DNA of 64,000 nucleotides from Eledone cirrhosa (Eukaryota), in the NCBI GenBank assembly GCA_964016885.1, contig OZ024750.1, positions 36,332,001-36,396,000 on the forward strand. Direction: 5' to 3'. The notes under the pieces were generated by a model. That model made no database searches. It had not been told where the DNA came from and saw only the letters and a list, made by a program, of their open reading frames with translations. The position numbers were made by a program, and so were the translations under genes. Shown in pieces: positions 2,624 through 55,721 of the stretch; position 1 is the first letter of the stretch; each line of letters opens with the position of its first letter.

Positions 2624-2777
2624 TTCATTATTTCTGAAGACGGCGTATATATGTGTTGGTATGTATATTTAATCTTGATAGTTTGTATAATTTTGTATAA
2701 TTTTGTACATAGATCTGTTGAATATGCATGCCAACTCTAACACATATATATCCTAGAAACGATCGTTAAATAATGAA
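2624..2777 (+). ncRNA. Type I hammerhead ribozyme motif with long stem II (PLE pLTR remnant)
   Basis: Stem I is TTCATTATTT/AAATAATGAA (10 bp) and the core is CTGAAGA...GAAA. Stem II includes TATATATGTGTT/AACACATATATA, stem III is the palindrome CGATCG, and the cleavage triplet is GUU. The base of stem II is mismatched. Confidence 0.75.
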
Positions 2778-3000
2778 CTTTTTTTGTTTAATATAAGGAA
2801 TTGTTTATTCATTATTTGTTTAATATTTTACATATAAATATATATATAAATATATATATATACATATAAATATATCAATATATATACAAATATATATATA
2901 AATATATCAATATATATACAAATATATATATATATACATATAAATATATATATATATAAATATATTTAAATATATAATATATAAATATATATAATATTTT

Positions 3001-3325
3001 CCTGGATGATCATCCATGGTACTTGCGAGCCACATATGGTCCCTCAAGGACTCAGGCATAGGCTACTCCATCCAATGGAAAGTTATTACTACGTCCAATC
3101 TATACTCATGCGGAAATCCATCTTGTGGACTGTGCATTGAAGAAAGGCTAAATATCCTGTGAAGATTATGCAATAACGATTGCCTAAATCGAGGAATAAA
3201 CTTTTTCCCGTTGTCCACATGGCTGGAAACATCTATTGCATAATTCCAACGCTCCAGGTTGACTAACATCAATAGTCCATAATATTCTGAATAACTTGAA
3301 TAATTTATTCCGGACACCTACATCC
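3001..3325 (+). pseudogene. Penelope-like element GIY-YIG endonuclease C-terminal remnant
   Basis: Manual translation gives SSMVLASHIWSLKDSGIGYSIQWKVITTSNLYSCGNPSCGLCIEERLNIL*RLCNNDCLNR. This aligns with STALSDLIWKLK...YSLVWYII...CKLCLNE in the 53906 ORF. Confidence 0.8.
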
Positions 3326-3940
3326 GCAGGGCTGGATTAATTGGGGGACAAAGGGGGCAATTGCCCTCGTCCCCTTGCTGTGGGGGGCGACAGCCGTTGC
3401 AATTTATTTGTGCCCTCATCTGGGTGCAAATTTAAGTTTCAAGATGGTTAGAATTTTTGAATTTAATATTTGTATGTATAACTTTTCAATTCCAATTACT
3501 TGCGCTAAGCTAACTTTGATATGTAAAATTGGAGGGTTTGCTGTGTATTGTAATTTTTTGGTGTATGAGGGGATCCCAAGATGTAAATCCAACCCTGTGC
3601 ACCCATCACACCTGATGGAGCCAATGGGGTGTTGTTGTGACATACAGCATTACGTGGGCATTTTAGACCTGATAGATCCCATCCCATCTCATCTCCAGGT
3701 TTGAATATAATTACTGATTTCTTCCAGAATATTGATATCTTATATCCTTGCATGTCGTGATGACTAAAAGAGTTAACATCAGGAAGAACACGTTGCTGTA
3801 AAGTATAATGCTTGACATGGGACCCACTAACGCTAACCAGTGAGAAAATGGCCCTAAAACACTTGTATATAAACATAATATCTGTATTCAAATTCAAATT
3901 GTGTGATGAGCAAAAATAAATGTGTGAAATTTTATAATAC

Positions 3941-4655
3941 TTAACCCTTTAGCATTTAATCTGGCCACATCTAGTCAGAATTCTCTCACCTCTTTCTATT
4001 CAAACTGGCCATAACTAGCCACTCATACCGATGTTAAGGTATAGGTCTTAAAATAAATATTTGGCATGGCAATAAAGTCTTTAGAATTGTAGGCTGTGTG
4101 CCATATATAGCAGTAAAGGTAGTTAATATTAGTTGGAATTTGAACTTTGTTGTATGCATGTGATATTCTGTATGAATACTGTATTTTGTATAATTATTTT
4201 GTCATTCTTTTGAGTTTATAATACACGCATCGAACTGCTCAATCCACAAAAGATTTTTTCCAGAGGAGAAGAGTGGCAATGATCAAACAATCACCCTATA
4301 GAGCCGACTTAAATTTGTACGATTGTTGGGTATTAAAGCAACATCTTTGAAAATTTGTTTTTGCTTCGTTACAAGAGGTGATAGACGAATCATTGCACTG
4401 GAACGGTTCCAGAAAGAGTTAAATGCTTTGCATAAACACTGTAAAAATATTATTGCATTCAATGGAGATTATGTTGTGCAGAATAAATAAATTTTAGTTT
4501 CAATATGTTGTGCATTTTCATTTAAAGGGTTATTAAGACTTTATTGTCACACCAAGTAATATCAAAATCTCATAGATTTAATATTATGTGAGATAAATCC
4601 TTTACCGTGAAAATACAATAGTATATATAGAGTAATATAAATGCTAAAGGGTTAA
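3941..4655 (+). mobile_element. piggyBac-like MITE interrupted by a mariner remnant
   Basis: Termini are TTAA-CCCTTTAGCATTT ... AAATGCTAAAGGG-TTAA. The same internal sequence occurs in other copies in the window. Confidence 0.75.
4060..4556 (+). mobile_element. Internally deleted mariner/Tc1 element
   Basis: TA-flanked imperfect TIRs TTTGGCATGGCAATAAAGTCTT / AAGACTTTATTGTCACACCAAG. Decayed transposase C-terminal motifs PYRADL (resembling PYSPDL) and NGDYV are present. Confidence 0.65.
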
Positions 4656-5924
4656 TTACTATTTCTTTACTTTTCAAATAGTTTATAGAGCTATAACAGG
4701 CAATTTGCTTGAACCTTTTGCGGACACAGCATAGTTTGTTTGAGCTCAAAAATAAAAAATATAATACAAAAAATTAAAAATATAATATATATATATATAT
4801 GTGTATATGTGGGATTATCACAGTCTTGAACAGATGATATTGGTTCAACAACCTGAAGCCAGGTAGGCCCTTTAGTTATGCAAGTTGCTGTTTGTTTAAG
4901 CTCTTTACAAACTGCAGCGAGGTGGGCCCTTTATGGACACATCACAATTTATTTGGGTTTTTGGTGTGACTCATACATATGAGACATGCAATAAAAACTA
5001 AAAATTGAAATAGAAAATCCTATTTTAAATACTTTCATCATAATTCATAATTAAATGTGCATTTCTACATTTCTGTTTAAAATATGTTATGACCCCTAGC
5101 AGATCTTTTAAAGCAATATTTCCAAACTGTCTTGAACATGTAGTCTTTGTGAAGAAGGGATGAAAATATTTAATTTAAAAGACCTGAACTTACTTTGATA
5201 ATAATGGAATAAGTAAAGGAGGAATTTAGCTAAGTAAATATGTATCCAAAGTAGCAAAGTTTAAAGTTAAATCTTAAATTCAATATTCAGAAAGATTATT
5301 TGTTTTATTTATAAATAAAATTGGATGTATTGTAAGTCATATTCTTGTCCATCCACCCACTGCTTAAAAAACAGGAATTTTATTTTCATTTTCTACTTGA
5401 GAAGAAGGCAACAAACTGTGATGATATATTTAAGTGAAAATAAAAGTTCTGTAAGATTAACTATAATAAATCTGATTTATGCTTAAGGCTGTCAAATATC
5501 ATTGAAAGCAAAGAGAAAACAAATTGAATTTATATTCTATTTCCCTTCAGTGATTAGTAAGCCAAGAATGAATAGTAAAATATGTGTTTACACTTTCTAA
5601 ACAGAATGTTTTAATGCAAATATACAATACTATAGTGAAATACTTGGCTCCATATATCTGTAAAAAACACACTCTGTTTAGAATGTATGAATATGATGAA
5701 AACTGAGAAGTATTTTAGAAAAGAATTACTGTAGAACTCTTCAGTCTATAAACATTATGATAGACAAGAAGAGAAGAACAGAATCACTATCAGAATTATT
5801 TCTAGCAAGGCTGCACATTTAGTGTAAAGGGAGAACAGTCTATTATATCATCCCCACTGCATGACTTGTACTTAATTATATTTTTTACCCCATGATTCTT
5901 GGGTAATGAGCAACACAATATGTT

Positions 5925-6320
5925 CACGAATACAAGAGGCTGAAATGGGGTTTCTCTGAAGAGTCTTTGGAGTAATGTTACACAGTAGAGTACATGGCTA
6001 GGAGATCAGACAGTCACTCCAGGTAGAGCCACTACTTCTCCAAATGGAAAGATCACAGCTCTGATACTATGGGCATGGAGTTAGAGTGTTTCAGGAAAGA
6101 ATCGCTGGACAGATTTTACGGGCAAAACCATCCAGCAGGATTGGGTAGACCCCGAGAAAGATGATAGGATAACATCCATAAGCTTAGCTGGACTGGCTTG
6201 GGGATCCAGCTGGATCAATTGGAGATGGTTGCTTCTAACAGGACCTGCTGGGATGAGTGTTTGAGGTCTCTGCCCCCATGACCCCCTAAGGAATAACTAG
6301 GTAGAGGAGGAGGAAGGAGA
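5925..6320 (+). mobile_element. Decayed RTE-clade LINE 3' fragment
   Basis: Translates to IQEAEMGFL*RVFGV...EPLLLQMERSQL*YYGH. A related copy lies on the minus strand at 32105-32375. Confidence 0.7.
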
Positions 6321-6390
6321 GCAAAGTTGACTTCAGTGGGATTCAGAATCAAAATGCGAATATTCCCAACTAAATATCAAATGGTATTTT

Positions 6391-6618
6391 GTCAACCACT
6401 CTACCACAACTCAACTGTCAACCACTCTACCACAACTCAACTGTCAACCACTCTACCACAACTCAACTGTCAACCATTCTTCCACAACTCAACTGTCAAC
6501 CACTCTACCACAACTCAACTGTCAACCATTCTTCCACAACTCAACTGTCAACCACTCTACCACAACTCAACTGTCAATCATTCTTCCACAACTAGCTATC
6601 AACCACTTTTTCACAACT
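6391..6618. repeat. 26-bp minisatellite, about 8-9 copies
   Basis: The unit CAACCACTCTACCACAACTCAACTGT alternates with the variant CAACCATTCTTCCACAACTCAACTGT. There are no spacers. Confidence 0.95.
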
Positions 6619-8086
6619 ATATATATAAGTATATACAAGTTGTAAAGTGTTAGGAAAGGCACCCAGCCAAAACAGAGCATTCATGTAGGAGCTAGTCACC
6701 TCACTGGTCTGTCCTTAGCGCATGACAGCTATCTAACTCAGTCAAGCATGAAAAATACATATTAAACAGTGATGATGATGATTATATATATATATCTATC
6801 GCCAATTATATTGTTTCTTTTTCCCTTCTCTCTAGTCTGGTATTTTAAACATTATACACATGCACATGCGCGCACACACTTTATTTAAAGGACTAAATTG
6901 CTGCTGAACTCCATGTCGGTCTATGTATCTATGCATTGCTACTATCCACTTTTTAAACTCTGCATTATCTACCCTTGTTCCTTATATAAACTTCAAGTTT
7001 CAATTAACTTCTTTAACAAAGGAAGCTTGTATGCGATTTCTCTACCTGTGAAATGCCAGCTAAATCTTCCTCAAACCCCATGCTACCATCTCGAATAAAA
7101 GAACTTATGGAATATTATTAAAATTGATACACTATTTGAATAAAATTGAATAAGATGACTTTAGTATGCTCAATCAGAGTTGACCTGGGGCTAAAAATAA
7201 TAACATTTCAATTGGTTATATGAAGAAGAGTAAATTCTTATCTTTATATACAGAAATATAGGCATGTTAACTATTTAAATTCTCCACTGCCTTTTTATCT
7301 GTCGTCCTTTAGGTACTAGTAAAACATTTAAATTGATAAATATCTTAATTTTCATGAAATGCACTGTAAAATGAAGGCAGAATTAAGGAAAAAATACAAC
7401 TATAGAAAAATATGTGTAAATAAATCTACATATAATTATATTAATATATTTATGAATACATGTAAACAAACTGTTATCTATTTCTTCACGAGAAGCATCA
7501 TTGTATATTTTTAGACACTTACACATATGCAAACACATGCATATGTATATATACATACATTCATGCTCAAACACACACACACACAAATACACACATCTGC
7601 ACTCAAACATTGTTACATATATACATACACATGTGCACACACACAAACACCTGCACACATACATGCATGCTCACTTGCACACACACACACACATGCACGC
7701 TCACTTGCACACACACATGCACAAGCACCTGCACACAAACACTCTCTTATATATACACACACTGGTAAAAAAAAAACTGAAATACACCTCCATAATTTTT
7801 GATAGTTTTTAAAATATTTCAATTTATTGTATTCAGTTTTAAAAAGCAGAACTTATATTTTTTCATAACGAAAATGTAATAATAATCAATATTAATAATC
7901 TTTCAAAGTTTTAATCCACTTTAACCATATTACCAGAAAGTTGTTACTATAATGTAGCATTTATATTTTACCATTATTCTTAAAAAGAGTGAGTGGTTAG
8001 TATCATTGAGACCTTGAATAAAATTTCCTTTGATTTAAGTTCAAATCTTGCTCAGTCAACTTTTCTTTTCATCCTACTTGAACACT

Positions 8087-8317
8087 TAACCCTTTACCAT
8101 TTAAACCAGCCATCACTAGCCAGAATTCTCTCATGCCTTTCTTTTCAAACTGGCCATAACTGGCCACTTGTAAAGACGTTAAGGTATTGTAGTCAAAATA
8201 AAATAAAAAATTAAAATCTTGTAGATTTTATATTATGTGAGATAATTATGTAAAATAAAGTCTTTACCACAAAAATACAATAGTATATATAGAGTTATGT
8301 AAATGCTAAAAGGTTAA
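8087..8317 (+). mobile_element. piggyBac-like MITE (further copies at about 17103-17402, 25608-25787, 28030-28226, 34290-34493, 37900-38124)
   Basis: TTAACCCTTTA...TAAAAGGTTAA termini, with a shared body GAATTCTCTCACCTCTTTCTGTTCAAAC...AAAATACAATAGTATATATAGAG. Confidence 0.75.
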
Positions 8318-9105
8318 ATGCCATACCAGTCAAATACATGGGTAAATTTAATTGAATGGGGCTGTCTACCAGGCTACTCAAGCATTGACACAATTGAGAA
8401 TCTTGAGTTGATATAATTGTTTTTGCTCTATTTAACCAACAAGTAATAAACCCCAGACTTGAACCCAATACATTTTTTTCTTCTCATCATATCTACTAAG
8501 TCTTCTTCTGTAAACAATGTATTAAAATTCTGCTTAATTCTTCCGTCCCAGAACTACATCCATTTAAAACTCCTCCTTGCCCTTTATTTTCTAATATCAG
8601 TGTATGCTATGGACCTGTAATTCTTGACGGTGTTGTAGGGGTGCCATATTTAGATATGGCGTTTCTTAGGGAACTTTTAAATTTGGCAGAGCCCATCTCC
8701 TCTCCAGGTCTCTAAATAAAACAGATTTCTCCCAGAGAAGGATAAAGAGTGAGAGAATGGAAATGAGAAAGAGATATAGAGGAAGAATCGACTCCAGTAC
8801 TTGACTGGTACTTTTTTTATTGGCCTCGAGTGGATGAAAGGGAAAGTTGAGCTCAGTGGAGTTTGAACTGAGAGAGCCAGAATGAATACCACAAAGAATT
8901 CTATCCAACATTCTAATGATTCTGCCCATTCCCCACCTATATCTGTGTATAGAAGTTCTAATTAAACAACTACATTAGTCTTAGGCAGCTTGAATAGGTC
9001 TGCTAAGACTTGTACACTCAAACTTTGAATTACTAACACCATCAAATATCTGTGATAGAGTTTTTCTCTTAGTAGAATTGTTTTCCTTACGCTGACATAT
9101 ATAGG

Positions 9106-36060: not shown

Positions 36061-37218
36061 AATACTTCAGTCTCCCTTTTTAGATCACTATAGGAGAGCC
36101 AATCCCAAGACATTTTAGTCTTTAATTCAAAGGTTTCCCCATGCAATTACTTTTCAATTACTGTTTCACCTCCACAGTAACTCATCTTTTAAACTCTTCT
36201 TTACTTTCCATTTCCCCCTTCCAGGGCCATTACTTCTGAGGAATACAGAAGACGTCTTTCATTACCATTTATCAGGTGGTAATAGGTGATGTTGCATTCT
36301 CAGACAGATTTCTTTATTGCCTTTACTCTCTATTTCCACCCGCTTTCCAGAGCCATTACTTCTGAGACATACAATCAAAGTCTTTCCTTATTATTTATCA
36401 GGTGATAATTAAAGGCCTGCCTATCATTCTTAATAGGTTCTGTAACACTTATCAACCCTCCTCCCCCACCAGTGTATTTCCAACAGTGTACGGCCATTTC
36501 ACACTTACTGAAATTGAGGTTGAGGCAGTCAGGTAGGCTGAGTAGAAAAGAAAGAAAAAATAAATTAAATAAAAAACAGCTCTGTCAGAAATCATCAACA
36601 ACCATACTAACCAATGTGAATCCATGAAATACAATGTCTTCAGAACCAGCAACACTGGGTTGCTTAACAAAGTGTATGAATTGGAGGAGGAAAACCCATG
36701 CAATATTGGATGAACTGGCTTAGAAATAAAGGGTTGTTTTTATTACTTCTGATAATTATGCTTTATATACATAACTATAAACACACATATATCATGATCA
36801 TTGTTTAATGTCCACTTTCCACACTAGCATGTGTTAGACGGGTTGTCTCATTTGAGGCCATGTCCTACTCATATAGAATTATTTCTGGCTAGGTTTCTAC
36901 GATTAGATACCCTTCATAACGACAACCACATTTCCAGTTTGTGCTGGTTGCTTTTTGTCATGACACCTACATGACCACTTTACAGTCTGGTTTGGGTGGT
37001 TTTTGTCATGACACCTACATGACCACTTTACAGTGTGGTTTGGGTGCTTTTTGTCATGACACCTACATGACCACTTTACAGTATATATATATATATATAT
37101 ATATATATAACCCATACTAGCGTGGAAGATGGACGTTAAACGATGATGATGATGATGATATATATATATATATATATATAATATATAAGATCAAAAGATG
37201 GTTAAAGGAGTTCCATGT

Positions 37219-37287
37219 ATTTTATTATGCGCATTTCAAAAACAAACATCATCATGCAATAATATTTGTGTTTTCATCAGATAAAAC
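37219..37287 (-). ncRNA. Minimal type I hammerhead ribozyme (left arm)
   Basis: Reverse complement of 37408-37476. Confidence 0.85.
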
Positions 37288-37407
37288 AGGAGAACATGAT
37301 ATGAAGGCTAAAAGACACTTGTGGATAGTGCAGTTTTAAATCAACATATGTTGATTTAAAACTGCACTATCCACAAGTGTTTTTTAGCCTTCATATCATG
37401 TTCTCCT

Positions 37408-37476
37408 GTTTTATCTGATGAAAACACAAATATTATTGCATGATGATGTTTGTTTTTGAAATGCGCATAATAAAAT
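37408..37476 (+). ncRNA. Minimal type I hammerhead ribozyme (right arm)
   Basis: GTTTTAT-CTGATGA-AAACACAAATATTAT..ATGATGTTTGTTTTT-GAAA-TGCGCA-TA-ATAAAAT. Stem III is palindromic. Confidence 0.85.
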
Positions 37477-38174
37477 ACATGGAACTCCTTTAACCATCTT
37501 TTGATCTTATATATTATGTATACTCCAGTCCTACAAACTGTAGAGTGCTTCTTATCCGATATCTGCATTGCTTTATTGTACTACAATAAAACTCACCTCC
37601 TACATATATATATATATATATATATACATAGAGAGAGAGAGAGTTACAGATTTGAAGATGCACCTAATATTTTTATCATATATATACACACAAATTTACA
37701 GTACACAATAAAAATAAGTTCATACAAAATAAATTGTATTAAAAAATATATATATAGGTGAGTTTTCAGAAATAACAATTTGTTATGTAATTTGTTTTCA
37801 AAGTAGCCTGTTTTGCCGCAATGTTTAAATTTCATGTTCAAGGTTACATTTGTGTTCGTGTTCAGTATAATGGAGGGTGAGTACAGTTTGTTTGGTTGGT
37901 TTAACCCTTTAGCATTTACATTACTCTATATATATTATTATATTTTCACGGTAAACACTTTATCTCACATAATTATCTCACATAATATAGAATCTGAGAT
38001 TTTGATATCTATTTTGAGAAGAATATCTTGACAAAAGTATGAGTGGCCAGTTACAGCTGGTTTGAAAAGAAAGAGGTTAGAGAATTCTAGCCGGATATGG
38101 TCTTTTTAAATGCTAAAGGGTTAAGGTATTTGCTACGGCTTAGTAGACTGATTGGAGAAATAACGGTCTTATTT

Positions 38175-38352
<178 letters not shown>

Positions 38353-38706
38353 GGAATAATTGTCTTATGTTGTTTATTACATAATTATATATATATATTT
38401 ATCAGTATTGAGTACTTTTCTCATATCTGTTAATAATACACAGATACACACACACACACACTCACATATATATATATATATATGAATAAGTGTGTAAGTG
38501 TGGAATCAGATGTAACAAGCAGTAGAGAAGATTGGGCTGGTAAGGACATATGATGTGTATGGATAATGATCGTTGGGTAAAGAAGTGGCAAAAGATCCCA
38601 GTGGAAGGAAGTTGCAGTAGAGGACTGCAGTGAACAGAGGGATGTTGTGCTGGAAAAGATCTATCCAGCCCTGCAAGCATGGAAAAGTGAATGTAAAAGA
38701 TGATGG

Positions 38707-38756
<50 letters not shown>

Positions 38757-38829
38757 GAAAATTAGAGTTAAAACTCCAATTGAAACCCTGTAACTATTAA
38801 GCTCCAAGTATAAAATACTGAGTCGATTA

Positions 38830-39307
38830 ATAATATATATGCAGTAAGAAACACAGTATACCGTGTGTCTAATATTACAAGGGTTGAAAAACCACATTTG
38901 TTTGAAATATTTAACCAAGAAGCAGACAGAATGATAAAATAAAAATATATTATTATACAAACCGCCTCAATAACTATTATATCTCTCAGACAGATTATCC
39001 CTAATCTGTTTCGCCCTGAGTGTGTTTGTAACAGATAATCCTTAGGCATCATCAGCGAGAGAATCAGATTAAATGCAACAAACACTATGTACCAACGTTC
39101 ACACAGAAAGATGAAATTTATCACCTCGTGCGCCGCTAGTCAAACGTGATAAGCGTGTATTGAATAGAAACAACAGTCCAACACACACAACTTAATAAGC
39201 TCGACTTCTGTCTGCTTCTTGGTTAAATATTTCAAACAAATGTGGTTTTTTAACCCTTGTAATATTAGACACACGGTTTACTGTGTTTCTTACTGCATAT
39301 ATATTAT
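38830..39307. repeat. PLE pLTR (minus strand) with an inverted copy of its terminal 100 bp
   Basis: The arms 38830-38931 and 39206-39307 are reverse complements with few mismatches. The spacer holds a hammerhead. Confidence 0.85.
38982..39062 (-). ncRNA. Type I hammerhead ribozyme with full stem III
   Basis: TCTCTCG-CTGATGA-[imperfect stem II]-GAAA-CAGATTA-GGGA-TAATCTG-TC-TGAGAGA. The cleavage site is GUC. Confidence 0.85.
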
Positions 39308-41011: not shown

Positions 41012-42350
41012 GTATTGATACTTTAACATATATCCCGTCCCACCACCCCCACCCCATCCACACCGCCCCCTTCTATGTAAAGTTATGTTGGTGCCACACC
41101 ATCCAGGCCGAAACAAATGAGATCGTGTAGGTGTCACGACAAAAAAACACACAGTCCACGCTGTAATGTGGCCGTGTAGGCAACACGGTAAAAACCTCCC
41201 AGACTCACACTGTAAATGTGGTTGGTGTTAGGAAGGGCATCCAACTGTAGAAAACCTGCCAGACAGTCCTATGCGAGCAAGACAATCACTCTTGCCTCAA
41301 GTGGGAATACCCCCGTCCAAACCCATGCAAGCGTGGAACACGGACGTTAAACGTTGATGATGATGATGATGATGATATACACACATACACACACACACAT
41401 ATATACATAAACACATACATAAATACACATACATACATACATACATATATATATTAACATTAGTTTTTGTAAATTTGGTATTTTTTATGATTGCAATATG
41501 CAAGGCGATCAATTGATATATTCTCTATTGATATTGATTCCATTTTTGCAAATGTAGGTAGTCTAAGTTTTGGTATAATTGCTACAGACAACAAAACCGA
41601 AATTTCAGCTATCACAGGAATGGCTTTTATGTATTTCCTGGAAAATATCATCATTAATAATAAATGAAGAAACAAAAATATATATACACTAGATTTTTTT
41701 CTCATATATAGAAAATGAACTTTTGTGAAAAATATCATTATATAGAACAGCAGCTGCAGTGGAAACATTTTCGAATGACTCATATTTACTATGTTCTTCT
41801 AAATGTATTTTGTTCAGGCAAGCTGAAAAAGCCTACAATTTGTGTTATTTTTATGCAATCTGATTAACTATTTGCAATAGCTGCTATCAAGAAATGTTTT
41901 CTAATTTCCTCGTAAATAAAATACATTCCTTCCATGAATATCAGATAATTGCTTCATAATTGAGTTTCTTGGCTCCTCCTTGTTCTTTTTTTTTTTATAA
42001 TATAATTGGCAGACTAAAAGGAATCAAAGATTTCAGTGAATCGATCCAACATTTCTTTTAGACAGATACAAACAAATTTTCATCAATGTTTTTAAAACTA
42101 TTATTTTCATAAGCAATGGCATTTTAACAATGAAAGGTATTCTTGAGATTTCAAAATAAATAAATAACTTAATTAAAATGATATATATATATCATAATAT
42201 ATATATATATATAATATATGGAAAGTTATATTTAAAATTGTTGGGTTACAACTAGTAAATATTTATAACTGATATAAAAGCACTCGACAAATATTTGGAG
42301 TATATTTACAATATTAAATAAATGGAAAACTATATTTATAAAACCATATT

Positions 42351-42416
42351 TATTTCATTATATATATTTCGGGGATATCATATTAACAATATGCTATGCC
42401 TTCATCAGACAAAATA
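42351..42416 (-). ncRNA. Minimal type I hammerhead ribozyme
   Basis: TATTTTGT-CTGATGA-AGGCATAGCATATT-GTT-AATATGATATCCCC-GAAA-TATATA-TA-ATGAAATA. Confidence 0.75.
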
Positions 42417-43718
42417 CAATATAAACAGTTTTATAGATAAATAGATTCGACATACCGTTATAACACCGACTTCATTTGAAGAGGTTTACGCTGGCAGTGA
42501 AAAAATTTTACACAGAGAGAAAGAAAGAGAGAAAACAGAAAGAAAGATAGAAAACGAAGAAAAGGAAGAAAAAGAAGAGAAAGAGGAAATGCATGGAACA
42601 AAATAGAGAGATGGAAAGATAGATAAAGCGAAGAACTTCATGTAAAGAAACAGAAAGAGATATATATATATATAGAGAGAGAGGAAATAGAGATAGATAC
42701 ATATATATATAGAAAATTAGGTAGTGGGAGGTCATTTTGAGTAAATGTATCAATGATACGTTTATTTATTTATTTATTTATTTAGCTCAAGTATTAATGT
42801 AAGGGAGACATATAGAGAGAGAAAAAAAATATAGAGAGAGGAAAAAAATAGCGAGAGAAAAAAATTAAAAAATATCCAGATATATTCGAGGCGTAAAAAC
42901 CCTATGTTTTAATGTATTAGTATTTATAAAACTTACACTATATTGTAAATATCAGTATTCCTGAATGAGACAAGTATCCAAAATGTGTGAAAATTAATTA
43001 TCTTATGTTTAGTCTTAAAAAAAAATTCATATGTTTATGTGACAGCTACAAACATCCATGCGAATCCAACTGATTCACTCTGCAAACTCTAAGTTCACGG
43101 AAAACATTCTCAATGTGGTATAAAAATTTGAGCATACAAATATGTGTATTATTATTCCTGTCATTACTCTACAAGATTATCTATCAAGCAGAAATAGAGA
43201 GCAGATTTCAATATACTAATAAAAATATATATCATAAACAAAACTAAAAATAAAAAGATAACAATAATAATAATAAGTAAAAATATAGAATATAGAATAG
43301 AAAACTAAAAAAATAGAAAACTAAAAAAATATTACGAAAGAATATTACATAATAAAAATATTATATATTAAACATACTACGTATTAAAAAATATTACGTA
43401 TTAAAAATTTACATATTAAAGATATTAAAAATAAAAATAAAATAAAAAATAAAAAATATTATAGAATACTACAATAATAAAAATAAAAATAAAAATAAAT
43501 AAAAAATAAATAAAAATAAAAATAAACCACAAAGATCAACCCTTCAAAGTTAATTGACAATATATTGCCAAGTTCATTACAAGACAAAGCCAAAAATTAT
43601 CTATCAAATCACATCTAGCAAAGATCATTTCAAAAAGATTATGATGTCCAATTAGGTCTACATATGTTCTTATATTTAATATAGAAGTTTATCTAGTGTA
43701 AGGTTTATTCAAAAAATT

Positions 43719-44078
43719 TGTAATGTTAATACTGACTCTAATTCTTTTAACTACGTCGGTTCCACATCGACGGAATTTAAACTTCGCTATAATAACCACA
43801 AGAATTCTTTCACAGATCCAAGTAAAAAATCTTCAACGGCACTATCAGGCGTACTCTGGCAACTTAAGCTAGATAACGTTAGATATTCGACGGCTTGGAA
43901 TATAGTCTCAAGAGGGATTCCTTTTAATTCAGCCTCTGAGACATGTGACCTCTGCGCAGAGGAGATATTCTTTATACTAAAATCTAAAAATTCCCTTAAC
44001 CTACGGACAAATTTATTCAGTTGTTGCAAACATAGATTAAACTCAACGTTTAAATATAAATTTAAATTTAAAATGTAG
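43719..44078 (+). pseudogene. PLE GIY-YIG endonuclease C-terminal fragment (no start codon, absent from the ORF track)
   Basis: CNVNTDSNSFNYVGSTSTEFKLRYNNHKNSF...STALSGVLWQLK...CDLCAEE...LNLRTNLFSCCKHR...M*, an uninterrupted frame. Confidence 0.9.
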
Positions 44079-45547
44079 TATATTTAGTTTGATTTATATT
44101 TATATGGGAAACTAGCCGATAAATTTTTTATTCCTAAATCTTTGATTCCTTCTTTTTACTCTTTTTTTATTGTTTATTTTTATTTTTATTTTATTTTTAT
44201 CTAAACATTCCTCATGAAAAATTAAGCTACCCTAAAAGCTGATGCTCCAAATTTTTTGAATAAACCTTACACTAGATAAACTTCTATATTAAATATAAGA
44301 ACATATGTAGACCTAATTGGACATCATAATCTTTTTGAAATGATCTTTGCTAGATGTGATTTGATAGATAATTTTTGGCTTTGTCTTGTAATGAACTTGG
44401 CAATATATTGTCAATTAACTTTGAAGGGTTGATCTTTGTGGTTTATTTTTATTTTTATTTATTTTTTATTTATTTTTATTTTTATTTTTATTATTGTAGT
44501 ATTCTATAATATTTTTTATTTTTTATTTTATTTTTATTTTTAATATCTTTAATATGTAAATTTTTAATACGTAATATTTTTTAATACGTAGTATGTTTAA
44601 TATATATTTTTATTATGTAATATTCTTTCGGAATATTTTTTTAGTTTTCTATTTTTTTAGTTTTCTATTCTATATTCTATATTTTTACTTATTATTATTA
44701 TTGTTATCTTTTTATTTTTAGTTTTGTTTATGATATATATTTTTATTAGTATATTGAAATCTGCTCTCTATTTCTGCTTGATAGATAATCTTGTAGAGTA
44801 ATGACAGGAATAATAATACACATATTTGTATGCTCAAATTTTTATACCACATTGAGAATGTTTTCCGTGAGCTTAGAGTTTGCAGAGTGAATCAGTTGGA
44901 TTCGCATGGATGTTTGTAGCTATCACATAAACATATGAATTTTTTTTAAAACTAAACATAAGATAATTAATTTTCACACATTTTGGATACTTGTCTCATT
45001 CAGGAATACTGATATTTACAATATAGTGTAAGTTTTATAAATACTAATACATTAAAACATAGGGTTTTTACGCCTCGAATATATCTGGATATTTTTTAAT
45101 TTTTTTCTCTCGCTATTTTTTTCCTCTCTCTATATTTTTTTTCTCTCTCTATATGTCTCCCTTACATTAATACTTGAGCTAAATAAATAAATAAATAAAT
45201 AAACGTATCATTGATACATTTACTCAAAATGACCTCCCACTACCTAATTTTCTATATATATATGTATCTATCTCTATTTCCTCTCTCTCTATATATATAT
45301 ATATCTCTTTCTGTTTCTTTACATGAAGTTCTTCGCTTTATCTATCTTTCCATCTCTCTATTTTGTTCCATGCATTTCCTCTTTCTCTTCTTTTTCTTCC
45401 TTTTCTTCGTTTTCTATCTTTCTTTCTGTTTTCTCTCTTTCTTTCTCTCTGTGTAAAATTTTTTCACTGCCAGCGTAAACCTCTTCAAATGAAGTCGGTG
45501 TTATAACGGTATGTCGAATCTATTTATCTATAAAACTGTTTATATTG

Positions 45548-45612
45548 TATTTTGTCTGATGAAGGCATAGCATATTGTTAATATGATATCCCCGAAATAT
45601 ATATAATAAATA
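45548..45612 (+). ncRNA. Minimal type I hammerhead ribozyme
   Basis: Same motif as 42351-42416, with a small deletion in the 3' strand of stem I. Confidence 0.7.
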
Positions 45613-45894
45613 TGGTTTTATAAATATAGTTTTCCATTTATTTAATATTGTATATATATAATATATATATATATAATATATATATATATATATCAGGGTG
45701 GTGGATTGGCAGTATTGGTAGAGGGTCAGACGCCATGCTTTGACGTATAGAGTTTATCATTCTGAGTTCAAAACCCGCCAAGGTTACCTTTGCCTTTCAT
45801 CCTTACGGGGTCGATAAAATAAAGTACCAGTAATGCACTGGGTAATTGCTGGCCTTGTGCCTAAAGTAGAAACAATTATATATATATATAAATA

Positions 45895-48215: not shown

Positions 48216-50766
48216 ATATAGAGGGAGAGTGGGAATTTCTGAAAGCAAACCTGCTGTTGGCGACAGACGAGGTCTGTGGCTGGAGCAGGCCTGTAGGCAG
48301 GAGGAGAGTAACATGGTGGTGGAACAGTAAGGTGGAGGGGTCAATTAAGGCCAAAAAGCAGGCTTGGAAAGTATGGCGGGATGGGGGAAGTAGAGAGGAC
48401 TATCAAGTGGCCAGGAGGGAAGCTAGGAGACAAGTGTACTTAGCAAGAAGGGAAGCTGAGGAAAGAAAGTTCAAGCATGTTCTACAACGCGATGACCAAA
48501 AACGTGAGGTGTTCAGGATTGCTAGGCAATGCGTCAAGGAAAACCGTGATATTGTCGGGGAGAAGTGTGTACTAAACGACGATGGCACACTTGCCATCAC
48601 CGACGCTGATAAGAAGGTAGCTTGGAAGTGTCACTATGAAAGGCTTCTAAATGAGGAGAATAATTGGGAGAAAGGCAGTCTCCCCCATATCGACCCAATA
48701 GAGGGACCAGCAGTGTTAGTCGAGGGGAGTATAATAAGTAAGGCAATCAAGGATATGAAGACTGGTAAGGCGGCTGGGCCTTCGGAAATAGTTGCTGAGA
48801 TGCTGAAGGCATCTGGCACGGTGGGACACACCATGGTCACCCGCATAGTTAACCAAGTCGTACAAAACGGGGTTGTTCCGAAGGACTGGCATAGCAGCAT
48901 CATCGTTAACTGTTATAAGGGTAAAGGAGACGCCCTAGATAGGAGTAACTATAGAGGCATTAAATTAATCGACCAGGTCATGAAGGTCACGGAAAGAGTA
49001 ATAGCGCAACTAATCAGAGAGAGAATTGACCTAGATGAAATGCAGTTCGGGTTTGTGTCAGGCAAAAGTACCACAGACGCTCTTTTCATAGTACGACAAC
49101 TACAAGAGAAGTACCTAGCTAAAGGTAAACCCCTCTACTTAGCTTTTGTCGACTTGGAGAAAGCCTTCGACAGAGTCCCCCGCTCCATTATCTGGTGGGC
49201 TCTTAGAAAACTAGGCGTTGACGAATGGCTTGTGAGGGCTATACAAGCCATGTATAAAGAAACAGTCAGCAAGGTTAGAATTAACAACGAATATAGTGAA
49301 GAGTTTAGCGTAAAAGTCGGCGTCCATCAGGGCTCTGTTCTCAGTCCACTACTATTTATTATTGCCCTTCAGGCCATAACAGAGGAGTTCAAGACAGGCT
49401 GCCCATGGGAACTCCTATACGCAGACGACCTGACACTCATAGCGGAATCAATGGCCGAGCTAGAGAAGAAATTCCAAACATGGAAGCACGGCCTAGAGTC
49501 AAAAGGACTTAAAATTAACCTGGCTAAGACCAAAGTACTAGTTTGTAGGAAAGAAAACAAGGCGGCGGTCCCTTCTGGGAAATGGTCGTGCTCGGTGTGT
49601 AGGAAAGGCGTAGGTAGAAACTCCATTTTATGTCCTAAATGCAAAGTATGGGTGCATAAAAGATGTAGTGGGATCACAGGTAGGCTAACTAAGAACATAG
49701 ATTTTACATGTGGCCGGTGCTCTGGTGCAATAAGTAGCAGCAAGTGCCCACAAACTACTAGCTCTTTCAATTGCGCAGAGGGTTCTATAGAAATAGTGGA
49801 CAGCTTCCGTTACCTGGGCGATAAAATCAGCAGTGGGGGAGGGTGCTCTGAAAGTACTGTAGCTAGAGTCAGAACTGGTTGGAAAAAGTTCAGAGAGCTT
49901 ATACCACTATTAGCTGCTAAAGGGTTCTCACTAAAAATGAAAGGCAGGTTGTACGATGCCTGCATACGAACAGCAATGCTGCATGGCAGTGAGACCTGGG
50001 CATTGTGTGCAGAGGATATATGCAGACTAGAGAGGAACGAAGCTTGCATGCTCCGCTGGATGTGTAACAGTAATATACGTGAACGGCAAAGCATAAACGA
50101 ACTAAGGAATAAATTAGAGATAAGAGGGATCAGATGTTGTTTACTCGAGAGAAGGCTACGTTGGTATGGACACGTGATGCGCATGAAAGTCGATAGCTGT
50201 ATAACAAAGTGCAGGGCAATAAAGATAGACGGTAGTCACGGAATAGGCAGACCTAGAAAAACCTGGGACGAGCTGATAAACTCCGACATCACACACTTAC
50301 ACCTCTCCAAGACAATGTCACTGGACCGAGACCTTTGGCGGTACTCAGTAACAGAGAAGACCCGCCTTACCTAAATATATAGTAAAACCTACTCCAGCCA
50401 GTAGGCATCTCTAACAAATACACCCCGTCCCACCACCCCCACCCGATCCACACCACCCCGTTCTATGTAAAGTTATGTTGGTGCCGCGCCATCGAGGCCG
50501 AAACAAATGAGATCGTGTAGGTGTCACGACAAAAAAACACACAGTCCACGCTGTAATGTGGCCGTGTAGGCAACACGGTAAAAACCTCCCAGACCCACAC
50601 TGTAAATGTGGTTGGTGTTAGGAAGGGCATCCAACTGTAGAAAACCTGCCAGACAGTCCTATGCGAGCAAGACAATCACTCTTGCCTCAAGTGGGACTAC
50701 CCCCGTCCAAACCCATGCAAGCGTGGAACACGGACGTTAAACGTTGATGATGATGATGATGATGAT
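48216..50766 (+). mobile_element. Young 5'-truncated RTE LINE (RT and PHD-like finger intact)
   Basis: ORF 48155-50374 is nearly identical to the 59076 ORF from IEGEWEF onward. It has the YADD motif, a 3' UTR and an (ATG)n tail. Confidence 0.96.
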
Positions 50767-50774
50767 ATACATAT

Positions 50775-50937
50775 ATAAAAACAAATAACGAAACGAAATT
50801 AAATTTCGTTTCGTTTGTAACTCACTTTTGTATGACTGACGCTTAAACAATTAAGTTAAAATTGTTTAAGCTTCATTCATATAAAAGTGAGTTACAAACG
50901 AAACGAAATTTAATTTCGTTTCGTTATTTGTTTTTAT
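50775..50937. repeat. Nested palindrome upstream of a hammerhead
   Basis: Inverted arms of about 75 bp, each containing its own hairpin AACGAAACGAAAT..ATTTCGTTTCGTT. Confidence 0.9.
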
Positions 50938-51063
50938 CGTCTCCGTTGAACCGGTACGTACTCACGCTCTATGCAAATTAGTCTGCCCACTACTAATTTT
51001 CATAGAAAAAGCATATAACGATATGTGCTTTTACGATTCTCTAGAAAGGCCGGAAGATAGGTA

Positions 51064-51108
51064 AATATTGCTGATGAGATGTAACAACATCGAAACTAGT
51101 CCAATATT
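51064..51108 (+). ncRNA. Canonical minimal type I hammerhead ribozyme
   Basis: AATATTG-CTGATGA-GATGT-AACA-ACATC-GAAA-CTAG-TC-CAATATT. Stems I and II are perfect, stem III is palindromic and the site is GUC. Confidence 0.92.
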
Positions 51109-51360
51109 CCTTGTCTGGCTTTCTGGAGAATAGAGGAAAGGTGTTTCCTCAAAAACCAGTATGACTCTAAAAACCGGTTTGTCTGTGTGTTTACATACAG
51201 AATAGCTGGACACTCACAGTAAAGTGACCAGTGAAAAACTCGGTACATCTACATATGTACACGTGTGTGTATTCATATGCATACTAGTATTTCAGTATAC
51301 ATATGTGGATGTACATTTTTAACTTAATTGTTTATACATATATATATATATATATAGATA

Positions 51361-53547
51361 TAAAATAAAGTTAAATAAAAGTCAAATGATTAAAATTTAG
51401 CTTCGTTTATTACTGCTATATATATTTCAGTGACAGCCATCTTTGGCTGTGACCTCTTCAGGCAGTTTGAATTAGTATGGTATAGACAAGTACATATGTT
51501 GTTTAGGTGTATGATATTGTCAATACTCTGATATGCCCAGTTCCTTGTTGGGTTGTTAATTCACTGGGGAACTGGAGTCATATGAATTCAAACAAACGAA
51601 TTTCAGTGTCACAGGTCCCCTTCTCCTCTCATTGGTCAGTTATTTGAACATTCCTCATTCTAAGTGTTGTTATTGTTGGAGTTAGCTTAAAAATTGATAA
51701 AATGGTAGAAGGGACAAGGTGTTAAAGGAACAAAATAACAAAATAACAAAAAAAGTGTCAAACTTCCCATTGTTCAGTTCTGAGAGCATTCCTCAGTCAG
51801 AAGTCTATAGAATTCTTTCTGGGGTGAGGCTCCCTGTAGTGTTTTTGCCTGCTATTGTTCAGTACATTTGACCTCCACCATTATTTTGGTACTGTTGTTG
51901 TTGTAGTGGTCAGCTTATATCTTGCTGCTGCTGCTAACAATTTAGAAGTATCCAGTTTGTGTTTTTTCTTCATCCCTCCCGCCACCATCGTAGTGGTGGT
52001 GGTGGGGGGGGGGGGGGTTCTTTCATGTATATGAAGAAATATATGGCAATAAATGAAGAAAATAGAAAATAAATAAATAATATAATAAAGTAATTAATAT
52101 AATTTGTGTAATTTGAAAATAAATAAATAAATAGAGAATAAAGAATAAAGAGTAAATGAGAGATTGGTGAAAAAGTAATGATAATGTATATGGAGAGGTG
52201 AGAAATAATGTAGGATAAAGTGTGTGTGTGTGTGCTATAACCAATCTCAAGGTCAGAATATGTTGGATAGATTGGTATGAGACAAGATGTTAAGATGAGA
52301 TATTCAATGTGTTTGTGTTATAATCTATCTCAACTTAAAATAAATATAAGATGATACAGTGAAGAGGGCAGAAAACAGAAAACAAATTAATAAAGAGAAA
52401 TCAAGATTTAAGATTGGAACTTGAAAGTCAGAAATCTGGTAAATTAAAAGTGTTTGTGTTATAGATGTTGGCCAAATTATTATGGCTGTGTCCGATTCTA
52501 TCTCTAGGCTATCATGGTGTCTGCTCTGCCTGGGTTGTTCCCTGTGGCTTGAGGGGAGTTCACAACCTAGGGTGTTGTTATTGCCCATATAGCTTGAGGG
52601 AGGTCTGGCCGAGAGGTGTTTTCATGTTCTGTAGAAGTCCCTATAGCTTGAGGGGAGTTCACATCTTCTTGTGTTGCTACTGTCCATATATCTTGAGAAA
52701 GGTGCCGGCTCTAAGGTGTCTGCATGTCCCGAAGAAGTCGGTTCTGAGGTTTATCAGGCCGCTTCCACCTCTTAATATCTCGAGGGTCTCGTTCAGGCAT
52801 AGTTTGCATATGCAAGATCCCCCTTTATCGGGTGGTACTTTCCTGATTATGTACCAGACCAGAGAGTATGGGGTCCTGTCCAGCTTAAGCTTCCAGATCA
52901 GGTCGGAGAGAGCTGTGCTTTTCCTTTTGGACTCCTTCTTGAATGAATGGCGATGGTTGTACCAGCGGTCCTTAAAGCTCGTTGATGTGGGTCCTATGTA
53001 GAGGTGTTCGGAGTTGGGGGTTTTAACCCGACAACCATACACTAGGTTCTTCTTGAGACATTCATTACCAAGGGGGCATGATTTGGGGTTTCTGCAGTTG
53101 CAGAGGGTGGTCGGCCTCTGCGTGCCTAGATTAGGGTTCTCATTATGTGTTACATGTTGGTCTTCCCCCATGCTCGGTGGGGGGTCCTTGGGTCTGTTTG
53201 TGTTTCTTGGGTGGGCTCTGGGTCCCCTCTTCCCTCATTTCACATGGTTCTGCTGAGTGTTTGTATTGCCATCTTCTGGTTGTGTGTGTTTTTTAAGCCT
53301 ACTTCTGTTGATGCTAGCTATGTGTTGGGCCAAATTTCTCGTGGTGGAATACGAAATCTTCACAGTGTGTCTGTTGAAGATCCTGTGGTATCTGTGGTCC
53401 CTCGGGAAGCATTTGTCAAGTGCTCCAAAGAATAATCGGGCCAAGCTTTTCTTTAGGGCCGCTGAGTAGGGTGGGTTGTACCACGTGATTTGTCGGTGTC
53501 TTCTCCTATATGTGTGGGTTGGGGGCTTCGTGATTTGTTGGAGATTT
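51361..53547 (-). mobile_element. Penelope-like element 3' portion (left arm of 4.4-kb palindrome)
   Basis: ORFs 53235-53567 and 52677-53171 mirror those of the right arm. Confidence 0.93.
51412..51466 (-). ncRNA. Minimal type I hammerhead ribozyme
   Basis: Reverse complement of 55616-55670. Confidence 0.85.
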
Positions 53548-55721
53548 GAAGCCCCCAACCCACACATATAGGAGAAGACACAGACAAATCACGTGGTACA
53601 ACCCACCCTACTCAGCGGCCCTAAAGAAAAGCTTGGCCCGATTATTCTTTGGAGCACTTGACAAATGCTTCCCGAGGGACCACAGATACCACAGGATCTT
53701 CAACAGACACACTGTGAAGCTTTCGTATTCCACCACGAGAAATTTGGCCCAACACATAGCTAGCATCAACAGAAGTAGGCTTAAAAAACACACACAACCA
53801 GAAGATGGCAATACAAACACTCAGCAGAACCATGTGAAATGAGGGAAGAGGGGACCCAGAGCCCACCCAAGAAACACAAACAGACCCAAGGACCCCCCAC
53901 CGAGCATGGGGGAAGACCAACATGTAACACATAATGAGAACCCTAATCTAGGCACGCAGAGGCCGACCACCCTCTGCAACTGCAGAAACCCCAAATCATG
54001 CCCCCTTGGTAATGAATGTCTCAAGAAGAACCTAGTGTATGGTTGTCGGGTTAAAACCCCCAACTCCGAACACCTCTACATAGGACCCACATCAACGAGC
54101 TTTAAGGACCGCTGGTACAACCATCGCCATTCATTCAAGAAGGAGTCCAAAAGGAAAAGCACAGCTCTCTCCGACCTGATCTGGAAGCTTAAGCTGGACA
54201 GGACCCCATACTCTCTGGTCTGGTACATAATCAGGAAAGTACCACCCGATAAAGGGGGATCTTGCATATGCAAACTATGCCTGAACGAGACCCTCGAGAT
54301 ATTAAGAGGTGGAAGCGGCCTGATAAACCTCAGAACCGACTTCTTCGGGACATGCAGACACCTTAGAGCCGGCACCTTTCTCAAGATATATGGACAGTAG
54401 CAACACAAGAAGATGTGAACTCCCCTCAAGCTATAGGGACTTCTACAGAACATGAAAACACCTCTCGGCCAGACCTCCCTCAAGCTATATGGGCAATAAC
54501 AACACCCTAGGTTGTGAACTCCCCTCAAGCCACAGGGAACAACCCAGGCAGAGCAGACACCATGATAGCCTAGAGATAGAATCGGACACAGCCATAATAA
54601 TTTGGCCAACATCTATAACACAAACACTTTTAATTTACCAGATTTCTGACTTTCAAGTTCCAATCTTAAATCTTGATTTCTCTTTATTAATTTGTTTTCT
54701 GTTTTCTGCCCTCTTCACTGTATCATCTTATATTTATTTTAAGTTGAGATAGATTATAACACAAACACATTGAATATCTCATCTTAACATCTTGTCTCAT
54801 ACCAATCTATCCAACATATTCTGACCTTGAGATTGGTTATAGCACACACACACACACTTTATCCTACATTATTTCTCACCTCTCCATATACATTATCATT
54901 ACTTTTTCACCAATCTCTCATTTACTCTTTATTCTTTATTCTCTATTTATTTATTTATTTTCAAATTGCACAAATTATATTAATTACTTTATTATATTAT
55001 TTATTTATTTTCTATTTTCTTCATTTATTGCCATATATTTCTTCATATACATGAAAGAACCCCCCCCCCCCCCCCACCACCACCACCACTACGATGGTGG
55101 CGGGAGGGATGAAGAAAAAACACAAACTTGATACTTCTAAATTGTTAGCAGCAGCAGCAAGATATAAGCTGACCACTACAACAACAACAGTACCAAAATA
55201 ATGGTGGAGGTCAAATGTACTGAACAATATCAGGCAAAAACACTACAGGGAGCCTCACCCCAGAAAGAATTCTGTAGACTTCTGACTGAGGAATGCTCTC
55301 AGAACTGAACAATGGGAAGTTTGACACTTTTTTTGTTATTTTGTTATTTTGTTCCTTTAACACCTTGTCCCTTCTACCATTTTATCAATTTTTAAGCTAA
55401 CTCCAACAATAACAACACTTAGAATGAGGAATGTTCAAATAACTGACCAATGAGAGGAGAAGGGGACCTGTGCCACTGAAATTCGTTTGTTTGAATTCAT
55501 ATGACTCCAGTTCCCCAGTGAATTAACAACCCAACAAGGAACTGGGCATATCAGAGTATTGACAATATCATACACCTAAACAACATATGTACTTGTCTAT
55601 ACCATACTAATTCAAACTGCCTGAAGAGGTCACAGCCAAAGATGGCTGTCACTGAAATATATATAGCAGTAATAAACGAAGCTAAATTTTAATCATTTGA
55701 CTTTTATTTAACTTTATTTTA
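53548..55721 (+). mobile_element. Penelope-like element 3' portion (right arm): linker, GIY-YIG endonuclease, long 3' UTR, pLTR
   Basis: RQITWYNPPYS...K(L/I)SYSTTRNL; CNCRNPKSCPLGNEC..NLVYGC...LYIGPTSTSFKDRWYNH...CKLCLNE...CRH. Confidence 0.93.
55616..55670 (+). ncRNA. Minimal type I hammerhead ribozyme
   Basis: ACTGC-CTGAAGA-GGTcACAGCCA-AAGA-TGGCTGTcACT-GAAA-TATATA-TA-GCAGT, followed immediately by AATAAA. Confidence 0.85.

Follow-up and report, generated by a model that had tools for sequence, protein, structure and literature searches.

The window described here is a 64-kb stretch of Eledone cirrhosa DNA (assembly GCA_964016885.1, contig OZ024750.1, positions 36,332,001 to 36,396,000), taken from a 55-Mb contig of a 3.0-Gb assembly. 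It is repeat-dense animal DNA (35.5% GC) with many microsatellites, and it contains exactly nine type I hammerhead ribozyme motifs according to a descriptor search, the number given in a preliminary description made from the sequence alone. Self-comparison assigned these nine motifs to six insertions: four Penelope-like elements (PLEs) and two non-coding retrozymes. All of the motifs in the preliminary description are therefore present, but they represent only six insertions, as three pairs are inverted duplicates: each of these pairs belongs to one PLE insertion consisting of a 5'-truncated copy and an inverted copy of its own 3' end. The motifs, including one truncated motif outside the count of nine, are as follows (core position and predicted cleavage site in brackets).

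2624..2777, plus strand: type I hammerhead, CGATCG family; 10-bp stem I, 115-nt helix II, palindromic stem III, GUU site (core 2634, cut after 2767)
37218..37288, minus strand: type I hammerhead, TGCGCA family; AUA site (core 37280, cut after 37226)
37407..37477, plus strand: type I hammerhead, inverted duplicate of the 37280 motif, from descriptor and self-comparison (core 37415, cut after 37469)
38291..38385, plus strand: 5'-truncated hammerhead end of a seventh family; lacks the 5' arm of stem I and is flanked by (TA)n on either side
38982..39062, minus strand: type I hammerhead whose stem III is long and not palindromic; GUC site, predicted monomer fold, competing loop II helix (core 39055, cut after 38989)
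42351..42416, minus strand: type I hammerhead, TATATA family B; AUA site (core 42408, cut after 42359)
45551..45610, plus strand: type I hammerhead, duplicate of the 42408 motif; a short deletion leaves a 5-bp stem I (core 45556, cut after 45605)
51064..51108, plus strand: canonical type I hammerhead (HH9-like); CUAG palindrome, GUC site (core 51071, cut after 51101)
51412..51466, minus strand: type I hammerhead, TATATA family A; CUGAAGA core, AUA site (core 51461, cut after 51417)
55616..55670, plus strand: type I hammerhead, inverted duplicate of the 51461 motif, from descriptor (core 55621, cut after 55665)

The insertions that carry the nine motifs, with the coding segments recognised in them, are as follows (RT stands for reverse transcriptase, ORF for open reading frame and UTR for untranslated region).

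1..2830, plus strand: Hydra-like PLE of the CGATCG family, represented by its 3' UTR and short 3' end; assigned from the genomic flank and full-length relatives of 830 aa
37178..37604, no strand assigned: fold-back remnant left by a Hydra-like PLE of the TGCGCA family; its short end is on the left, its tailed end on the right
38753..39305, minus strand: long-stem retrozyme, about one unit (~472 bp); tailed end left, short end right
~42218..45655 (3.4 kb), no strand assigned: Hydra-like PLE of TATATA family B; the tailed end is on the left, the short end on the right
43680..44078, plus strand: open frame for the C-terminal endonuclease of the PLE ORF, family B; 93% identical to an RT-bearing relative
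50775..51334, plus strand: CTAG retrozyme, one unit (~466-469 bp) at 50860-51334 and an inverted ~85-bp tailed end at 50775-50859
~51357..55818, no strand assigned: Hydra-like PLE of TATATA family A, forming a near-perfect palindrome of 4.4 kb; the short end is on the left, the tailed end on the right
52677-53234, minus strand: mirror copy of the family A endonuclease in the inverted arm
53843..54400, plus strand: CxCx5C linker and GIY-YIG endonuclease end, family A (PF01541, E 0.003, under cut-off)

The hammerhead motifs

The descriptor, which was composed post hoc with the motifs already seen, specified a stem I of at least 5 bp, CUGANGA, GAAA, an A15.1-U16.1 pair, an NUH site and a stem III that is either palindromic or at least 4 bp in length. 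All nine motifs show CUGANGA and GAAA, A15.1-U16.1, NUH, three helices and stem I closure. Dinucleotide shuffling, a check proposed in the preliminary description, gave a mean of 0.075 matches for 40 whole-window shuffles and 0.025 for 40 local 500-nt shuffles, with a maximum of one match in either set as compared to the nine observed. The descriptor also recovered coherent families in unseen DNA, where shuffles produced two matches per 99 stretches. The positions originally assigned to the motifs are the edges of stem I and are correct to within 1-3 nt. Five families have a palindromic stem III as described (CGATCG, TGCGCA, CTAG and, in two, TATATA), while that of the 39055 motif is a true hairpin.

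The observation that stems vary while pairing is kept was borne out by an alignment of 14 hand-picked sequences from several families on a structure hand-drawn by the analyst: 92% of 280 cells were paired and 14 of 20 stem pairs had two-sided changes, a level reached by none of 500 shuffles. When genomic copies were collected with patterns in which stem III was fixed, with or without the core (the CGATCG pattern additionally fixed the stem I 3' arm), 73 of 85 distinct copies had retained a stem I of at least 4 bp. Among CTAG retrozyme copies there is a compensatory stem II change from A-U to U-A. Rfam returned a single hammerhead match in the window, Hammerhead_HH9 at 51053-51124 (38.9 bits, E-value: 2.5e-6). 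This is under the gathering score of 52, and the other families had no hammerhead match, so the hammerhead families of the window are missed by Rfam gathering thresholds. Rfam microRNA matches were discarded as hairpins and (TA)n tracts, all of them under gathering.

It is very improbable that AT-rich DNA produced the motifs by chance or that the palindromes are artefacts of assembly. A GC content of 35%, the many microsatellites and the post hoc descriptor leave some room for this explanation, as does the folding of four motifs at close to the shuffle level: 37415, 42408 and 45556 (three of eight motifs) have z values of -0.98 to +0.49, no better than shuffles, and 39055 has a z of -0.96. The 2624..2777 motif has a folding z of -5.2. 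Against this explanation stand the shuffle means of at most 0.075, the thousands of genomic copies with reversed-pattern controls near zero, and the compensatory changes. Assembly artefacts are unlikely because each palindrome has a defined tail at one of its ends and not at the other, and because a few differences exist between the arms. The hammerhead motifs in the window are confirmed as real.

The partial motif noted at 38291 was upheld as the truncated end of a seventh family. Its stem I 5' arm has been lost to an (AT)55 tract, and full copies elsewhere retain the arm. Nearby (39410-39540 and 40335-40600) there are three repeat copies, two of them forming a 120-bp tandem, that end in a GAAA-containing motif with core-proximal likeness to the 38291 family; judging from their sequence these are possibly decayed hammerhead elements. 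One weak motif, at 18309 (+) with a 3-bp stem I, appeared when the descriptor was relaxed; it was left out of the count. It has a long non-palindromic stem III and a short stem II, and motifs of the same type were seen in five other stretches (L031, L195, L207, L217 and L263), with two copies 318 bp apart in L263. This type may be a decayed eighth family, perhaps another retrozyme.

Two motifs have unusual features. The 115-nt helix II of the CGATCG motif (2641-2755) exceeds the helix II lengths in a table published for Hydra elements, and the PLE of this family has a 4-kb 3' UTR rich in (TATG)n-like repeats. In the long-stem motif, a loop II segment (39025-39040, minus strand) is complementary to the stem III 5' strand and is invariant in 22 of 22 distinct copies from divergent subfamilies (L142-L170). 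For the competing helix the prediction is ~0.48 in the copy from the window and exceeds 0.5 in five of the 22 other copies. As the segment is transcribed ahead of the stem III 3' strand, it could act as an off switch or kinetic delay; alternatively, it could make a tertiary contact.

Penelope-like elements and retrozymes

The CGATCG element extends beyond the window: an open frame of 642 aa with RT and GIY-YIG lies 1.4-3.3 kb to its left, followed at 3.3-5.1 kb by a 1.7-kb inverted copy carrying an identical second hammerhead and the tailed end. The TGCGCA fold-back has 170-bp arms (37178-37517) around 37347/37348 with (TA)n on either side, and a copy elsewhere in the genome has an ORF of 821 aa. 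Family B has a 5'-truncated sense copy starting at 43721 and an inverted 1.5-kb copy of the 3' end on the left, while the family A palindrome consists of two 5'-truncated copies back to back near 53540. A 5'-truncated PLE copy with an inverted second hammerhead is a layout already described in passages of PMC8557442.

Copies of the TGCGCA and CGATCG families elsewhere have long ORFs (738-830 aa) between same-strand hammerheads, and family A open frames reach 896 aa in other genomic copies. The 821- and 830-aa ORFs encode RT followed by GIY-YIG in a single frame, with YRDD and a C-terminal Y[IFV]G. The CxCx5C linker and the CxxC and CxH around a conserved E and N are present in the ORFs of all four families; RWK-like (RLRW/RVRW) and SDKT motifs are present in the TGCGCA and CGATCG families, the two for which the N-terminus is covered. 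Partial tandems of the pseudo-long terminal repeat (pLTR) type, an inverted 5' copy and a tail at one end are found among the four families. Clusters of look-alikes or homologues of the PLE ORFs carry GIY-YIG, RVT_1 and PF26215, and one ORF has a single named relative, a sequence of Argonauta hians with 37% identity.

On these motifs, which stand in for an RT tree, the four families match the Hydra-clade PLEs as described in passages of PMC8557442. Members such as Hydra-1_Obim of Octopus bimaculoides and Penelope-13_HM have the same C-terminal GIY-YIG, RWK-like, DKT, CxCx5C and CxxC/CxH motifs, and the clade has the same (TA)n targets, 3' type I hammerhead and tail at one end. The supplement lists a hammerhead-bearing member from Octopus bimaculoides as well as Penelope-13_HM, a Hydra copy that has the same 5'-truncated inverted copy and second hammerhead on the opposite strand. 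The elements described here differ in their longer units (3.3-7 kb; generally less than 3 kb in the published passages) and tails (~80-130 nt; 30-40 bp), in a stem III palindrome of even length (6 bp), in the 115-nt helix II of one family, and in copy number (up to 10^4 per pattern, while few Hydra families outside cnidarians appear in the published passages). Assignment to Naiad or Chlamys PLEs was ruled out, as the endonuclease is C-terminal rather than N-terminal to RT. The preliminary description attributed the motifs to PLEs. This holds for the four families whose hammerheads have PLE ORFs between them or upstream of them and fails for 39055 and 51071, which belong to ORF-less tandem retrozymes rather than pLTRs. 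A fifth Hydra-like PLE remnant lies at 22358-24150 (+), running from the RT thumb to the endonuclease with a CxCx5C linker and a long N/H-rich insertion. No hammerhead was found downstream of it; a short interspersed nuclear element (SINE) and microsatellites are there instead.

The CTAG and long-stem retrozymes have units of 469 and 472 nt with GC contents of 0.37 and 0.35, and their longest ATG-initiated ORFs are 64 and 55 aa. The 51071 motif recurs at a spacing of 462-470 bp in arrays of up to ~30 units, and the 39055 motif at ~450-472 bp. At 39205-39305 the long-stem insertion repeats ~100 bp of its 3' part in inverted orientation. Circular folds of the CTAG and long-stem units are predicted at -155 and -121 kcal/mol, as compared to shuffle means of -95 and -99. 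As short ORF-less tandem repeats of low GC with one type I hammerhead per unit, both fit the retrozyme class. Passages on animal non-LTR (long terminal repeat) retrozymes (PMC7229834; Li et al. 2026 preprint) describe the same ORF-less tandems with GC below 45% and one type I hammerhead per unit, the same well-paired predicted circle and the same range from dimers to large arrays; the published unit range of 170-400 nt, which is descriptive and not a mechanistic limit, is exceeded here (~470 nt). According to the same passages the axolotl carries ~126,000 motifs.

In one array 12 units are identical, as are units compared five by five across both arms, while in most arrays the units differ by 3-12% (88-97% identity). 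Identical units fit copying from one template RNA, as well as local homogenisation or consensus polishing. The CTAG retrozyme was found in four contig runs of unlabelled kind from four organisms (X1 and three others), with the head-to-tail joint expected from genomic tandems; no RNA run was among those listed for it. In run X1 the depth at position 51101, the cleavage nucleotide, is mostly T, indicating that the larger CTAG subfamily has a GUU site. Tandem hammerhead repeats also occur in the background at L244:7014-9804 (10 copies of a 310-bp unit) and L206:1626-3322 (424-bp unit), which points to several retrozyme families in this genome.

Ends of the insertions and their integration

Each family has two fixed positions for its 3' ends, counted from the cleavage site, and most of these ends lead into (TA)n. 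The offsets of the short and tailed ends are as follows (nt).

TGCGCA PLE: ~50 and 135
TATATA family A PLE: 56 and 152
TATATA family B PLE: 55 and 140
CGATCG PLE: 64 and 195
CTAG retrozyme: 225-230 and 299
Long-stem retrozyme: 165 and 245

The two retrozyme ends are thus 70-80 nt apart and 165-300 nt from the cleavage site. (TA)n follows the fixed ends in 26/38, 36/40, 42/57 and 29/34 cases in the four PLE families, with tandem read-through counted as misses. In end mapping, 9 of 22 CTAG rows (offset 211) were set aside as an internal palindrome on the wrong strand, 8 of 35 long-stem rows (offset 395) were set aside as alignment breaks between subfamilies, and offsets of 223-229 were read as alignment breaks ~25 nt short of the tailed end. 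Contigs of one public run have (AT)n loose ends at the tailed site, 50937.

Neighbours on opposite strands no more than 3 kb apart are arranged back to back rather than face to face, 18:0 and 13:0 for the retrozymes (31 versus 0) and 23:1 and 18:1 for two PLE families, among the first 100 matches listed for each pattern, all on contig 1. All six insertions in the window have one short and one tailed end. The same is true of all 31 inverted insertions for which both ends were scored (25 PLE, of which two are probably members of other families, and 6 retrozyme). In a further set of 40 stretches, most of them picked for opposite-strand pairs, one short and one tailed end were found in 14 of 16 inverted CTAG insertions (two of these are at loci that had already been scored or are duplicates of such loci) and in 6 of 10 inverted long-stem insertions. 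This rule ties two RT start sites known in vitro to the inverted PLE layout.

The explanation that we favour, with a probability of roughly 0.85, is that the hammerheads are the 3'-end motifs of six independent insertions into (TA)n, all likely integrated by a Penelope RT-endonuclease. The PLE protein would cut both strands of a (TA)n tract, and reverse transcription would start within the RNA at either of two fixed positions downstream of the ribozyme, one of the cut DNA ends priming at the short site and the other at the tailed site. After an early stop the two cDNAs would be joined back to back, so that both ends of the insertion carry a hammerhead, but on opposite strands. Passages of PMC8557442 describe (TA)n targeting, inverted 5' copies and a tail at one end as features of PLEs, and passages of PMC11167929 interpret the tail as the stretch separating two internal sites of RT initiation, used on either cut strand. 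Poseidon of Anolis, the element studied there, shares the two internal start sites that define the tail, the cutting and extension of both strands and an AT-rich target. It belongs to another clade, and its hammerhead overlaps the start of the ORF, is protein-dependent and is dispensable for insertion in vitro.

With moderate confidence, we extend this to the retrozymes: they would be integrated in trans by Hydra-clade PLE enzymes, primed at two fixed sites on a circular RNA, rolled and joined back to back. We infer copying in trans because the retrozymes share the marks of PLEs and have ends away from the ribozyme cut site. Use of the PLE protein on what is probably circular or multimeric RNA would yield tandem arrays with the same ends, each cDNA rolling through one to ~thirty units before joining, and the hammerheads would cut single units out of the tandem precursor RNA, acting as dimers in families with a palindromic stem III and as a monomer in the case of 39055. 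Being truncated singletons, the copies in the window are probably for the most part inert. Mobilisation of retrozymes by PLEs has been proposed from shared traits (passages of PMC7229834) and from co-occurrence and a Xenopus phylogeny (passages of 10.64898/2026.07.22.740005). PLE-type ends on retrozymes add structural evidence for PLE integration beyond co-occurrence and phylogeny, and make the enzyme and template of animal retrozymes testable with the existing in vitro PLE assay. If the reading is true, it provides direct structural evidence on how retrozymes move and names the exact RNA priming sites.

Several findings weigh against this reading. First, the only sequence link between the retrozymes and the PLEs compared here consists of nested copies and microsatellite matches. 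Second, only 13/16 and 14/21 retrozyme ends at the fixed sites run into (TA)n. Third, the end rule has exceptions: one CTAG insertion ends at 212 and another is composite, while two long-stem insertions look short/short with a SINE adjoining one end and two have one unresolved end. Fourth, a Pfam scan of four long PLE ORFs returned no family.

An unlikely alternative is that the retrozymes are orphan pLTR remnants of unseen autonomous PLEs, amplified as satellites by unequal crossing over. PLE-type ends are expected of any PLE 3' remnant, the homogeneity of arrays is compatible with local amplification, and the route is raised in passages of the preprint 10.64898/2026.07.22.740005. However, a PLE ORF lies upstream of only 1 of 30 CTAG loci and 0 of 30 long-stem loci, and the lone ORF apparently belongs to a separate PLE past a (TA)n tract adjoining the array. 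L310, a candidate for a retrozyme-bearing parent PLE, was ruled out as a (TA)n tract lies between and the PLE has its own decayed hammerhead-like end. Tandem units present in both inverted arms, identical across the junction and with PLE-type ends on the outside, are also a poor fit to local crossing over.

Close to the retrozymes are the non-autonomous Chlamys PLEs such as MRC1, non-coding head-to-tail multimers ascribed to PLE machinery in passages of PMC8557442. These are green-algal and have a 3' end like that of an autonomous partner, a match that was not found for the retrozymes described here. Inverted arrays, fixed ends, tails and (TA)n targets are undescribed for retrozymes in passages of PMC7229834 and the Li et al. 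preprint. No literature title was evidently on inverted, tailed, (TA)n-targeted retrozyme arrays or on octopod retrozymes, although supplements of the retrozyme papers may show such layouts, and the word "ribozyme" is absent from passages of the Octopus vulgaris repeat annotation (PMC13282606).

Two further observations concern the tails. A GAGTGCT motif is common to the tails of three PLE families (55720-55818, 42220-42310 and 37518-37604), and its complement is present in the tail of the 38291 family; it is a possible protein-binding or RT-start signal, and no RT-start motif common to all families was established. At L325:2747-2790 two retrozyme insertions of different subfamilies are fused at the AT-rich loop of the tail hairpin, which suggests that the tail itself may be an insertion target.

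Density, read-through and other repeats

Pattern searches of the genome gave 40,935 matches for the TATATA types, 19,926 for TGCGCA, 9,238 for CGATCG, 9,465 for CTAG, 1,013 for the long-stem and 739 for the 38291 family, a total of 81,316, with at most 98 for each reversed-pattern control. The genome thus seems to hold ~10^5 hammerheads and many Hydra-like PLE and retrozyme families. Passages of PMC4209133 on minimal PLE hammerheads describe the same type I fold, long helix II and palindromic helix III, many families per genome, and a predominance of solo copies from truncated PLEs; opposite-strand pairs 100-700 bp apart were reported there for Schistosoma. It is already known that PLE ends carry hammerheads, that one genome can have many such families and that pairs occur on opposite strands. 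The sequences described here are new and their pattern matches more numerous (>80,000 versus 2,000-9,000 per genome).

Under the same descriptor, forty evenly spread 10-kb stretches of the same contig contained 25 motifs in 19 insertions, or 4.0 and 3.0 per 64 kb. The flanking 200 kb had 12 motifs in 10 insertions, 19 stretches at the 5-Mb position of other contigs had 5 motifs in 5 insertions, and 20 mid-contig stretches had 25 motifs in 14 insertions. The window is about twice as dense in hammerheads as the background, which is unremarkable since it was picked for density. In the comparison with background that the preliminary description had called for, the motifs are elevated (9 versus ~4 per 64 kb) but the six insertions are not unusual (P = 0.088 for the same contig, 0.105 for the flanking 200 kb). 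Two figures pull the other way: only 3% of resampled same-contig windows reach nine motifs, and P is 0.008 against the sparsest sample, the 19 stretches at the 5-Mb position.

The preliminary description had viewed the locus as a sink for many PLE families in which read-through transcripts of either strand would be cut. That it is a special sink, with the motifs acting as a two-strand barrier, appears quite improbable. In its favour are the motif count just given and the nesting of elements in each other's (TA)n tracts: the right (TA)n tract of the CTAG retrozyme is shared with PLE family A (51334/51357), and a second case is L310. Insertion into one another's (TA)n flanks leads us to expect some clustering, and with only six insertions at about twice the background of the same contig, the sink claim was not sustained. 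The cluster represents known biology at close to background density and is of modest importance.

Cleavage of read-through transcripts on both strands is expected only rarely. The motifs of an inverted pair are on opposite strands, so that a transcript of either strand meets one per pair and no dimer can form within it; lying in a long perfect inverted repeat, this one should be buried in double-stranded RNA. The palindromic stems III form no hairpin and are predicted to pair as homodimers (-11.8, -10.5, -4.8 and -3.2 kcal/mol), in agreement with the dimer cleavage suggested in the preliminary description. Matching palindromes on the same strand occur only in 45556/55621 and 51461/42408, which lie at a distance of 9-10 kb and whose duplex is predicted at -3.2 kcal/mol. 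Among the nine motifs only 39055 has a stem III predicted to be of the monomer type. In passages of PMC4209133 minimal PLE hammerheads are uncut as monomers and weakly cut as dimers, and in passages of PMC11167929 an Anolis PLE hammerhead required protein for cleavage. No host exon was recognised among 51 frames, although short exons would escape; two of the 51 had Pfam hits, both to domains of long interspersed nuclear elements (LINEs).

The remaining repeats include an intact LINE ORF of 1028 aa at 58965-62051 with an apurinic/apyrimidinic (AP) endonuclease, RT and a PHD-like finger, which we take to be RTE-like. A truncated LINE copy at 48143-50374, 11.7 kb away, is 98.5% identical to it, and an inverted LINE 3' fragment at 55950-56736 is joined via a 1.6-kb (TA)n tract. 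A 1.3-kb minisatellite (26132-27442) has 11-bp units, higher-order periods of 33 and 121 bp and spurious long open frames. The tRNA-like heads of an abundant SINE family were found at 10517-10573 and 12924-12981 (Rfam tRNA, 32-33 bits), and many SINE copies end in (CAT)n adjoining (TA)n tracts.

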